Below, one piece after another: positions 6,896-21,894 of a DNA stretch of 64,000 nucleotides (position 1 is the first letter of the stretch; each line of letters starts with the position of its first letter). The notes under the pieces are model-generated. The model saw nothing but the letters and a program-made list of their open reading frames with translations, did no database searches and was not told where the DNA came from. The stretch comes from Candidatus Helarchaeota archaeon (GTDB lineage Archaea; Asgardarchaeota; Lokiarchaeia; Helarchaeales; RDOG01), in contig JAHPZH010000002.1 of assembly GCA_019058315.1 (NCBI GenBank), forward strand, positions 192,001-256,000. The letters are read 5' to 3'. The translations under genes and the position numbers were made by a program.

Positions 6896-6972
6896 GCCGT
6901 CGTGGCTTAGTTAGGTAGAGCATCCGGCTGTTAACCGGACGGTCGTAGGTTCGAATCCTACCGACGGCGCCA
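6896..6972 (+). tRNA. tRNA-Asn(GTT), intronless, CCA encoded
   Basis: GCCGTCG/CGACGGC acceptor stem, TCCGG-CT-GTT-AA-CCGGA anticodon arm, GTAGG-TTCGAAT-CCTAC T arm. Confidence 0.97.
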
Positions 6973-6976
6973 ATAT

Positions 6977-7113
6977 GCTCCGATGGTGTAGAAAGCCGTA
7001 AAAAATGTTACTACGGTTTGCAAATCCCGGCCAAGCATAAAGGGCTTTCGATTACTTTGCTAAGGGTAAAAAGATACCCTTCGACCCGGGTTCGAATCCC
7101 GGTCGGAGCACCA
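6977..7113 (+). tRNA. tRNA-Glu(TTC) with two introns: D-loop (6993..7024, about 16/17) and canonical 37/38 (7051..7075)
   Basis: GCTCCGA/TCGGAGC acceptor, AAGGG/CCCTT anticodon stem, CCGGG-TTCGAAT-CCCGG; both inserts fold into bulge-helix-bulge motifs (TGTA/TGCA and CTTT/AAAG central helices). Confidence 0.9.
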
Positions 7114-19786: not shown

Positions 19787-20833
19787 TCAAGTTTGGATTT
19801 TTACAACTAAATCTGGTTCTACTTCAACAACCCACCCAAAAATATCTTCTTCTTCTTGAAGTTGAATTTTTGTAAGCAAGTCATATAATTTTTGAGTTAC
19901 TGACCCTACTTTAAAATCATTAAATACATGATCTTTACCCTTGTATAACAAGGATCCTATTGGAGTAACGACTGCAGCAGTACCAGAACAGAAAACCTCA
20001 GAAGCTTTCAATACTTCGTCAATTGTAATGTCTCGTTCTTCAACTTTCATTTTTAATTTCTTTTTAGCTATATCAATTATTGAAGCTCTTGTATTTCCTG
20101 GTAATATTGATCCAGTAAGTCTTGGTGTCATTAAAACGTTATTAACTACACAGAAAAAGTTTGCAGTTCCAACTTCTTCAATATACTTACCATTTGCTGC
20201 ATCTAGATATAATTCCTGATTATACCCTTTTTCTTTAACTTTTTTTGCTGGAAGCATCGAACCTGCATAATTACAAATGGTTTTAATACCACCAGTTCCT
20301 TTGGGGGCAGCTCTATGAAATTCTGTTATTGCTAATTTAATCGGATTAAATCCTTCTTTATAATAAGGACCCACTGGAACCACAAAAATTATAAATGTAT
20401 AACTAGGGGCGGGAGCAACTCCTAAAATTGGACCAGTTCCCCATAATACAGGTCGAATATATAACGCTCCTTTTCCATATGGTGGAATATAATCTTCATT
20501 TATTTTTACTACTTTCTTGACATCATCTACGAATTTCTTTGGATCATAGGGTGGGATTAGTAAACGTTCACAACCCGCTTTGAGTCTTTTTCCATTATCT
20601 AAAGGTCTAAAAAGCACAAGTTTATTCGCTTTTGTCCTTAACGCTTTCATACCTTCGAAAATGCCTTGTCCATAGTTTAATACACATGCAGCTGGTGAAA
20701 TTTCAAAATTTCCAAATGGAACAACTTTACCTTCATCCCAACCAGTCTTTTCTTCCCACTTCGAAAGAAACATACCCTTAGTTGGCATGAAATCGAAACC
20801 GAGATTGTCCCAGTCTATATTTACATCTGTCAT
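19787..20833 (-). CDS. ilvE: Branched-chain amino acid aminotransferase
   Basis: LNYGQGIFEGMKA, LFRP, LYIRP, GGIKTICNY, ILPGNTR.S, EVFCSGTAAVVTPI. Confidence 0.95.
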   Translation of the reverse strand: MTDVNIDWDNLGFDFMPTKGMFLSKWEEKTGWDEGKVVPFGNFEISPAACVLNYGQGIFEGMKALRTKANKLVLFRPLDNGKRLKAGCERLLIPPYDPKKFVDDVKKVVKINEDYIPPYGKGALYIRPVLWGTGPILGVAPAPSYTFIIFVVPVGPYYKEGFNPIKLAITEFHRAAPKGTGGIKTICNYAGSMLPAKKVKEKGYNQELYLDAANGKYIEEVGTANFFCVVNNVLMTPRLTGSILPGNTRASIIDIAKKKLKMKVEERDITIDEVLKASEVFCSGTAAVVTPIGSLLYKGKDHVFNDFKVGSVTQKLYDLLTKIQLQEEEDIFGWVVEVEPDLVVKIQT

Positions 20834-21099
20834 TTCTCATCTCCTTCTAAAAATAAATTACAAAGTAGACTTTATTTGTTTGTTCAACTTATCTTCAATA
20901 ATTTAAAAATCTTTTGAGTATTTTACTAAATAAATTAGAATTTTTAGAGTATAAAATATCAAATTACGGAAAATGTACAGAATTTAAAAATATTAAATTT
21001 GTTATTTAAATTATTTATTAAATAAAAAGAAATCAATTAACAAATTAAGGCAAAAATTGAAATCAATTATTTAATATTTCAGGAAATTTCTTTAATTAA

Positions 21100-21238
21100 G
21101 GGCCTGTGGCATAGTATGGGCATATTCCTTTGACTAAAAGATATAGTATAGATAGTGCGCTGGCTTGCGGAGCCAGAAATCATGGGTTCAAAGTTAAAGA
21201 GAAACATTCTCCTTAACGAACATATCCCATCAGGCCCA
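21100..21238 (+). tRNA. tRNA-Arg(GCG) with two non-canonical introns: D-loop (21120..21151, 19/20) and T-loop (21192..21223, 58/59)
   Basis: GGGCCTG/CAGGCCC acceptor, CTGGC-TT-GCG-GA-GCCAG; removing the inserts restores AGTATGGATA and TTCAAAT; T-loop BHB with GTTC/GAAC helix. Confidence 0.88.
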
Positions 21239-21433
21239 TTTTTCTCTTTTTAATAATGTAATTTCGTTGTACACAATCTGAAGAACTTTAATTTCTCTCT
21301 AAATAATGCTCTTTATGAGCGCGGTTATACAAATGACGAATACAAATCCTAAAAAAGAATATTTATTTTTAGAAATATTTCTTAAAATGGAAGCAATTAT
21401 CCAAAATTTTTATACTTAAAATAACCTGAAATA

Positions 21434-21556
21434 GGGTCTGTGGCTTAGGTTGGATTACATTTCCAAAGAGAGCACCTGCCTCCGGAGCAGGAGTTCATGG
21501 GTTCAAAGTTATAGAATGGACGATTCTTTAACGGATATATCCCATCAGACCCGCCA
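21434..21556 (+). tRNA. tRNA-Arg(CCG) with two non-canonical introns: 13-nt D-loop (21456..21468, 20a/21) and T-loop (21507..21538, 58/59); CCA encoded
   Basis: GGGTCTG/CAGACCC acceptor, CCTGC-CT-CCG-GA-GCAGG; BHB helices TTGG/CCAA and GTTC/GGAT; splicing restores AGGTTGGATA and TTCAAAT. Confidence 0.9.
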
Positions 21557-21579
21557 ATTTCTTCTATTAATTGTTTAAA

Positions 21580-21894
21580 CTAAAGAACGAAGAAAAAGAT
21601 CGAAATTAATATTATAACTATTAATGCAGCTATCAAAATGTAAAAAGCTGGGCTTTTATATAACCCCCTCTTTTTCGGGCTTGGAGCAAATTTCTCATAA
21701 CATTTCTTTGAACAAAAAGCCATATATGAAATTGATTTGTTATCAGATTTGCGTACAATTTTATAGGTTTGACCTTTTTCTACCATTTGATCACAAACTA
21801 AACAGTGATAATGGGGATAAATAGAGACAGCTTCTGCTTGTTCTTGGCGTATCTTCCTTTTCCATTTTTGTAAGGGTTTCTTTGGCTCTGACAT
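21580..21894 (-). CDS. DUF2116-like Zn-ribbon protein with C-terminal membrane anchor
   Basis: PHYHCLVC ... FCSKKC, C-terminal hydrophobic helix. Confidence 0.75.
   Translation of the reverse strand: MSEPKKPLQKWKRKIRQEQAEAVSIYPHYHCLVCDQMVEKGQTYKIVRKSDNKSISYMAFCSKKCYEKFAPSPKKRGLYKSPAFYILIAALIVIILISIFFFVL

Follow-up and report, generated by a model that had tools for sequence, protein, structure and literature searches.

Positions 21100-21556 of the window (the whole stretch of DNA that was analysed, 64,000 nucleotides) hold two neighbouring, genuine arginine tRNA genes, tRNA-Arg(GCG) (gene 1) and tRNA-Arg(CCG) (gene 2), both on the plus strand and each broken by two non-canonical introns (Table 1). 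The observations are jointly best explained, with high probability in our judgement, by working, protein-spliced genes that are doubly interrupted and whose T-loop introns derive from one intron; as part of this explanation, genes 1 and 2 would be the host's working genes for tRNA-Arg(GCG) and tRNA-Arg(CCG). The stretch lies in an A+T-rich spacer of 750 bp with two G+C-rich islands in it. The closest named relative of the aminotransferase on one flank is from Candidatus Helarchaeota Hel_GB_B (69% identity), and it is this single protein that suggests a Helarchaeota-like host; at the Hel_GB_B locus with the neighbouring aminotransferase gene, an Arg tRNA was not found within 3 kb. A candidate TATA-like box precedes gene 1, a match that carries little weight in so A+T-rich a spacer.

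Table 1. Features of the locus, other tRNA-Arg genes of the genome and Arg(GCG) genes of relatives. Coordinates are those of the window unless a contig or locus is given; for introns, the central helix of the splicing motif and the bulges (slash at the cut) are listed.
Feature	Position or locus	Strand	Details
Class IV aminotransferase gene	19787-20833	minus	one flank of the tRNA spacer
TATA-like box TTTAATAT	21070-21077	plus	about 23-30 nt upstream of gene 1; read from the sequence
Gene 1, tRNA-Arg(GCG)	21100-21238	plus	
Gene 1 exon 1	21100-21119	plus	positions 1-19: acceptor 5' strand, D-stem 5' strand, D-loop to G18 G19
Gene 1 D-loop intron	21120-21151	plus	32 nt, position 19/20 (between G19 and A20); GTAT/GTAT 4/4 (2 Watson-Crick, 2 G-U); bulges GG/G, AG/A
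Gene 1 exon 2	21152-21191	plus	A20 to A58: D-stem 3' strand, anticodon arm CTGGC-TTGCGGA-GCCAG, variable loop, T-stem 5' strand, T-loop nt 1-5
Gene 1 T-loop intron	21192-21223	plus	32 nt, position 58/59 (between A58 and A59); GTTC/GAAC 4/4 Watson-Crick (GAAC at 21218-21221); 5' bulge AA/A, 3' bulge AT/A
Gene 1 exon 3	21224-21238	plus	A59 to discriminator A73, then T-run
Gene 2, tRNA-Arg(CCG)	21434-21553	plus	encoded CCA at 21554-21556
Gene 2 exon 1	21434-21455	plus	positions 1-20a
Gene 2 D-loop mini-intron	21456-21468	plus	13 nt, position 20a/21; TTGG/CCAA 4/4 Watson-Crick (CCAA at 21463-21466); bulges AT/T, AG/A; no flanking helices, relaxed motif
Gene 2 exon 2	21469-21506	plus	A21 to A58; anticodon arm CCTGC-CTCCGGA-GCAGG
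Gene 2 T-loop intron	21507-21538	plus	32 nt, position 58/59; GTTC/GGAT 4/4 (2 G-U); bulges AA/A, AT/A; homologous by alignment to 21192-21223
Gene 2 exon 3	21539-21556	plus	A59 to discriminator G73 (21553) and genomically encoded CCA (21554-21556)
Small zinc-ribbon-like ORF	21580-21894	minus	other flank of the tRNA spacer
tRNA-Arg(TCG)	same genome		without intron
tRNA-Arg(CCT)	same genome		D-loop intron
tRNA-Arg(TCT)	contig C10, about 130040-130150	minus	30-nt T-loop intron at 59/60; encoded CCA
Same-class Arg(GCG)	L005, L015		intronless
Same-class Arg(GCG)	L002, L004, L007, L008		T-loop intron only, at 58/59
Same-class Arg(GCG)	L006		D-loop intron only
Same-class Arg(GCG)	L003		D-loop and T-loop introns
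Same-class Arg(GCG)	L009-L013, L016, L017		D-loop and variable-loop introns
Same-class Arg(GCG)	L014		variable-loop intron only
Same-order Arg(GCG)	L021		D-loop intron at 19/20
Same-order Arg(GCG)	L020		D-loop intron at 19/20 and variable-loop intron
Same-order Arg(GCG)	L075 (G006:C13:27011 onward)		appears to have two separate D-loop inserts, at about 16/17 and 20/21

Removal of the four inserts yields perfect cloverleaves with fully paired acceptor, D, anticodon and T stems, which ARAGORN calls as tRNA-Arg(gcg) of 75 nt (gene 1) and tRNA-Arg(ccg) of 75 nt plus CCA (gene 2). Each gene preserves the full set of 21 stem pairs, and where pairs differ from one gene to the other the changes are compensatory (C4:G69 vs T4:A69 and A12:T23 vs T12:A23); the exons are G+C-rich in a genome of 30% G+C. 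The anticodon loops, TTGCGGA and CTCCGGA, are uninterrupted at 7 nt, hence without an intron at 37/38, and combine an NCG anticodon with U33 and a purine at 37. Both spliced products possess A20 and C35, the arginine identity elements in ArgRS recognition. In the minimum-energy folds of the unspliced sequences all four tRNA stems are kept, with the inserts forming hairpins inside the D-loop and T-loop.

The D-loop boundaries were set in two independent ways, from the uninterrupted D-loops of relatives and from standard BHB geometry. The former read AG-N-N-TGGATA (e.g. L002, L005), a product obtained only if gene 1 is cut after G19 (or G18) and gene 2 after T20a; the latter, in which cuts fall 2 nt 3' of a 4-nt exon-intron helix, selects the same sites. 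The resulting D-loop of mature gene 1, AGTATGGATA, is the same as that of locus L002, whose D-loop is uninterrupted, and that of gene 2, AGGTTGGATA, agrees with the relatives' consensus. Spliced cloverleaves and BHB geometry thus agree on the intron positions that an earlier sequence-only reading of this DNA by a model had assigned correctly (19/20 in one gene, 20a/21 with 13 nt in the other, 58/59 in both and none at 37/38).

At all four junctions the central 4-bp helix of the BHB motif can form in full. When each intron was shuffled, with shifts that preserve the spliced product allowed, a 4-bp central helix arose in 7%, 6%, 13% and 7% of trials (a range of 6-13% per junction), or about 4e-5 jointly. 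Clean bulges are seen on the 5' side, three of the four introns have an inner helix, and outer helices are weak or shifted. The inner helix of the gene 1 D-loop intron comprises 5 bp beyond one mismatch; that of the gene 1 T-loop intron is GTTAA/TTAAC with 5 further pairs, next to a weak, HBh'-like outer helix, and that of the gene 2 T-loop intron is GTTA/TAAC with AGAAT/ATTCT. On the 3' side the T-loop introns depart from a clean 3-nt bulge: five nucleotides bulge out with opening of the last T-stem pair, or the outer helix is limited to 2 shifted pairs, and if the T-stem is kept the bulge measures 5 nt. The junction motifs therefore look relaxed and HBh'-like rather than strictly hBHBh'. Relaxed HBh' motifs need a broad-specificity endonuclease, and the predicted cleavage of the 13-nt D-loop intron relies on such an enzyme because this intron has no flanking helices. 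An alternative cut of the gene 2 D-loop at 21454-21466 was rejected, having only 2/4 pairs. No C/D-box motifs were seen in the T-loop introns.

A broad-specificity endonuclease had also been deemed necessary in the earlier reading, and inspection of the EndA architecture is in keeping with this, as the sequences indicate a crenarchaeal-type alpha/beta pair. Two genes with the endonuclease catalytic domain are present in the genome. The alpha subunit (184 aa) matches the Aeropyrum pernix catalytic subunit 3P1Z_B from end to end (E 4e-45) and keeps the catalytic Tyr/His/Lys together with the Lys-Pro of the crenarchaea-specific loop; it thereby resembles, over its full length, the alpha of the A. 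pernix (alpha-beta)2 EndA with L1 loop (PDB 3P1Z/3AJV). The second paralogue (201 aa) has the fold with the catalytic His replaced and is beta-like; among known structures it best matches the M. kandleri and M. jannaschii enzymes and not crenarchaeal beta subunits. The genes lie at L030:1228-1782 (184 aa) and L031:1474-2079 (201 aa) in the order given, both on the minus strand. An RtcB ligase is encoded 16 kb beyond the window (582 bits). Asgard archaea are reported to carry (alpha-beta)2 EndA with the L1 loop, and non-canonical introns to be cut only by (alpha-beta)2 and epsilon2 enzymes (Kaneta et al. 2018, PMC5829648).

We infer from these elements how transcription and splicing would proceed, whichever order the cuts take. 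An A+T-rich, TATA-like stretch of its own is apparent upstream of each gene, and the two are probably transcribed as separate precursors with two BHB introns each. The four exon nucleotides just 5' of each 5' splice site would pair with four nucleotides near the 3' end of the intron, a helix that would place both cut sites two nucleotides beyond it, one per strand. The heterotetrameric (alpha-beta)2 EndA is predicted to cut there, the crenarchaeal/L1 loop of its catalytic subunit allowing relaxed motifs, and RtcB to join the exons. Removal of both inserts would restore the tertiary core between D-loop and T-loop, including G18 G19, A20 and T54-A58.

Standard tools pass over both genes, as had been expected of default scans. 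With default settings ARAGORN reported only a tRNA-Asn at 6896-6972 in the whole window and neither unspliced Arg gene, and Rfam at gathering thresholds found the same single tRNA-Asn only. A sensitive Rfam scan of 20900-21800 gave gene 2 a score of 16.6 bits, below the cut-off of 29 and with the 3' end misplaced, and returned nothing for gene 1. The intron option of ARAGORN was unusable as a genome census, producing many false or mis-parsed calls (e.g. Ser(aga), Asn(att)) and missing the Arg genes. Directly after the tRNA-Asn lies a tRNA-Glu(TTC) (6977-7109) with a D-loop insert and an anticodon-loop insert, which default ARAGORN missed and the intron mode called Asn(att). CGT and CGC together account for 6.3 per 1000 codons in 1,250 long ORFs, and the decoding of CGU and CGC in this host appears to depend on a gene that is invisible to ordinary tRNA finders. 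Because scanners miss such genes, tRNA-based estimates of completeness or codon capacity will be wrong unless the searches tolerate introns.

Judged by alignment, the two T-loop introns are homologous, their likeness exceeding that imposed by the motif. Their shared ends are partly forced, since introns at 58/59 must pair with GTTC, and all 58/59 introns seen in the genome and its relatives end in a GAA-type tetramer and two further nucleotides. With these motif-constrained ends removed, the alignment of the cores beats 19,999 of 20,000 shuffles (p ~5e-5) and all 20,000 random genomic windows. Identity amounts to 19/32 without gaps and 20 of 27 columns in the gapped core, or about 60-70%; the matching core reads GTTA.AGA...TTCT..TTAAC, and the exon places no constraint on its inner helix GTTAA/TTAAC. 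The core alignment upholds the earlier claim that these introns are homologous, and the complete central helices the claim that they keep the pairing of GTTC with GAAC or GGAT. The D-loop introns, which had been called unrelated, do indeed differ in length and position and lack convincing similarity; a match between CATATTCC and CATTTCC was dropped as too short to be meaningful.

The exons around the T-loop introns are alike as well. The T-arms of genes 1 and 2 are identical (17/17), and a search of 7 genomes of the order found a T-arm ATGGG/CCCAT followed by CAG nowhere else. The acceptor 3' strands differ only by one change, which is compensated in the 5' strand; the mature tRNAs are identical at 59 of 75 positions, with greater divergence in the 5' two-thirds of the genes. 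Because the introns are homologous and the T-arms are identical and specific to both genes, these comparisons favour a recent shared origin of the 3' halves, via tandem duplication or gene conversion, over free transposition. Both T-loop introns would then descend from one intron, with separate histories for the D-loop introns, and the shared 3' half would comprise the end of the variable loop, the T-arm, the intron and the acceptor 3' strand. Duplication of the whole gene after both introns were in place would give related D-loop introns, so their unrelatedness suggests that the 3' half alone was converted or that replacement followed later. Position 34 is the sole difference between the anticodon arm of gene 2 and the Arg(GCG) arm of two same-order genomes (G003 and G005), and the transfer of the module, by tandem duplication or gene conversion, may for this reason have involved an anticodon switch. 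That the pair records a route of intron spread in Asgard archaea not found by the 2026 census, in which a T-arm-plus-intron module is passed between neighbouring isoacceptors, is a tentative and somewhat doubtful proposal. Gene duplication and intron transposition had both been suggested from the sequence; common descent of the 3' halves is now the favoured course, short of settling the matter.

It is unlikely that the T-loop intron was copied from one Arg gene to the other without duplication or conversion of the gene, as proposed for Thermoproteales. The identity of the two introns lies under the 80% used for calling transposed families, and such families make up 1.5% of Asgard introns in the 2026 census (bioRxiv 10.64898/2026.10.13.758758). 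The intron-flanking exons, identical and specific to both genes, are what conversion or duplication predicts, although the differing D-loop introns and anticodon arms, which leave only the T-arm region and its intron alike, would also suit a mobile intron, and families across tRNA types are documented for Thermoproteales, as summarised in the same preprint. In searches of the genome for any of the four introns, blastn-short returned self matches and chance 10-16-nt words only, hence no intron family. The other T-loop introns of the genome (Gln, Met, three Leu and Arg-TCT) have only the motif-forced GAA-type 3' end in common with the pair, and the core of the tRNA-Arg(TCT) intron is unrelated to those of genes 1 and 2.

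With shared descent of the 3' halves as the preferred account, we consider whether the host has another source of these tRNAs. Intact intronless Arg(GCG) and Arg(CCG) genes elsewhere, which the sequence-only reading had named, together with undetectable mature spliced tRNAs, as grounds for regarding the present ones as pseudogenes, did not come to light: no conventional copy was found in the 5.79-Mb assembly (94% complete, 6.6% contamination). A scan of the whole assembly for 5-bp stems closing a YU-GCG/CCG-RN loop did not find tRNA-like GCG or CCG anticodon arms elsewhere, and blastn did not find further copies of either mature sequence in it. On contig C3 (627500-631800, minus strand) some 20-25 tRNA genes are packed into 4.3 kb, an array that duplicates many anticodons of the dispersed set and has stems lower in G+C. 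The 14 array genes recognised have inserts only in the anticodon loop and none in the D-loop or T-loop, and the array resembles a second tRNA set with a history of its own. One of its members, a tRNA-Arg-like gene at about C3 631390-631545 (minus strand) with the stem CAAGA/TCTTG and an encoded CCA, has an anticodon-loop insert of about 106 nt that contains TCT, GCG, TCG, CCG and CCT, each as T-NNN-AA. Five Arg triplets in this arrangement are far from chance, and the gene might be a second source of GCG and CCG anticodons.

Among relatives, exon 2 of gene 1 is 86-91% identical to the Arg(GCG) genes of 16 same-class genomes, whose intron content varies (Table 1). The 19/20 site of gene 1 is common to two same-order genes (L020 and L021) under the same helix rule, and its D-loop intron is probably an order-wide Arg(GCG) intron. 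With gene 2 as the query no Arg(CCG) orthologue was found in 40 relatives, the only matches being Arg(GCG) genes of two same-order genomes. Neither gene was matched by sequence or patterns in a same-family genome (G001), which at 94% completeness does not show that the genes are absent there. In three sediment runs of another study, contigs cover gene 1 and contain both of its introns; the substitutions listed within the gene fall at 21134 (D-loop intron) and 21192 (the bulge nucleotide of the T-loop intron), the others in the spacer. A more diverged contig over gene 2 keeps inserts at both sites, most of its listed changes lying inside them. Rebuilt from the changes listed, its CCG T-loop intron starts like that of gene 1 and appears intermediate, at most a hint of the kinship between the two.

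These comparisons bear on the reading that the genes are decaying pseudogenes whose inserts are never removed, with Arg(GCG) and Arg(CCG) supplied by the C3 array gene or by an unassembled gene. An assembly that is 94% complete, and an array gene with GCG and CCG triplets in a U33-NNN-A37-like context, leave some room for it. Decay is nevertheless very improbable for genes in which every stem pair is intact, with compensatory differences, in which the exons have stayed G+C-rich and all four inserts sit at splice-competent junctions, and in which the strain substitutions listed avoid the exons; inserts at the same sites recur in orthologues from the order and class, and the assembly yielded no conventional alternative gene. 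Convergence, by which the T-loop introns would be alike because any 58/59 intron must pair with GTTC and form a hairpin, explains the common GAA-type ends and is scarcely credible for cores that match without those ends, surpassed by none of 20,000 genomic windows, for an inner helix not set by the exon and, a weak point, for an apparently intermediate intron in the diverged relative.

The heavy intron load that had been proposed for the lineage is seen throughout the genome. At least one insert is present in 25 of the 31 dispersed tRNA genes recognised, and two or more in 11; by site, 16 genes have an insert in the D-loop, 12 in the anticodon loop, 3 in the variable loop and 7 in the T-loop. 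These counts are a lower bound: the finder was anchored on the T-arm, needed a stem G+C filter against thousands of false candidates, and misses genes with introns inside stems or at positions 53-58, tRNA-Arg(TCT) being one that was missed.

Heavy, scanner-evading interruption of tRNA genes is already published for Asgard archaea, and what is new here is a fully mapped, Helarchaeota-like example. In three complete Atabeyarchaeia/Freyarchaeia genomes 92-95% of tRNA genes have introns, often non-canonical and multiple, some of them missed by tRNAscan-SE (Valentin-Alvarado et al. 2024, PMC11291895). A census of 90 Asgard genomes found that about 30% of inserts, mostly in the D-arm, had been missed, that BHB enrichment is strong and strongest in the T-arm, that gains were repeated and that most genomes have (alpha-beta)2 EndA; intron families across tRNA types were rare (1.5%), and no general route of arrival emerged (Goswami et al. 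2026, bioRxiv 10.64898/2026.10.13.758758). Our genes resemble those of both studies in having several short, BHB-fitting introns per gene in the D-arm and T-arm alongside an (alpha-beta)2-type EndA, in D-arm inserts that annotators miss and in gains and losses that are patchy among relatives. They differ in their Helarchaeota-like host, a lineage not named in the main text of those papers, and, with respect to the census, in that two neighbouring isoacceptors share a homologous intron inside an identical T-arm.

The statement in the earlier reading that multiple non-canonical introns are best known from Thermoproteales holds for the introns themselves and is out of date as to where they are known, given these Asgard cases (PMC11291895; bioRxiv 10.64898/2026.10.13.758758). 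According to the Thermoproteales literature as cited in the 2026 preprint, 28% of introns there belong to families that have at least 80% identity and span different tRNA types (Marck and Grosjean 2003; Sugahara 2008; Fujishima 2010), and the same sources describe features shared with our genes, namely D-loop and T-loop introns, up to several per gene, relaxed BHB motifs and a heterotetrameric endonuclease with the crenarchaeal loop. Unlike such families, which are called across different tRNA types or positions, the sole related pair found here is about 60-70% identical and belongs to tandem paralogues with identical flanking exons; the T-loop introns fall outside a transposed family of the Thermoproteales type. 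The host, too, is of a different phylum, with a 30% G+C genome from sediment metagenomes. The two Arg genes leave the current picture of archaeal tRNA splicing unchanged. Their eight predicted cleavage sites, including those of the 13-nt mini-intron, are ready substrates for work on Asgard endonuclease specificity, and tandem isoacceptors with homologous T-loop introns add one modest observation on the inheritance and sharing of introns.

A 15-mer common to both genes, ATGGGTTCAAAGTTA, proved too short a pattern for a metagenome scan: it gave at least 120 matches, all unrelated and none with matching T-stem and acceptor context. Pattern matching also brought up a 27-nt unit with CCTCCCTCCGCAGCAGG, present in at least nine tandem copies in a same-order genome (G005:C79:27140-27372, L024-L029); this is probably a tandem repeat, coding or not, without relation to tRNA. 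In four sediment runs (X1-X4) the contig depth over the middle exon of gene 1 (window 21139-21192) is several-fold above that of its flanks, and loose ends before this exon read like other D-loop inserts (e.g. GTCTAGT, then A+T-rich sequence). Given this depth and these insert-like ends, Arg tRNA genes of other organisms in those sediments seem to carry an interruption at the same site.
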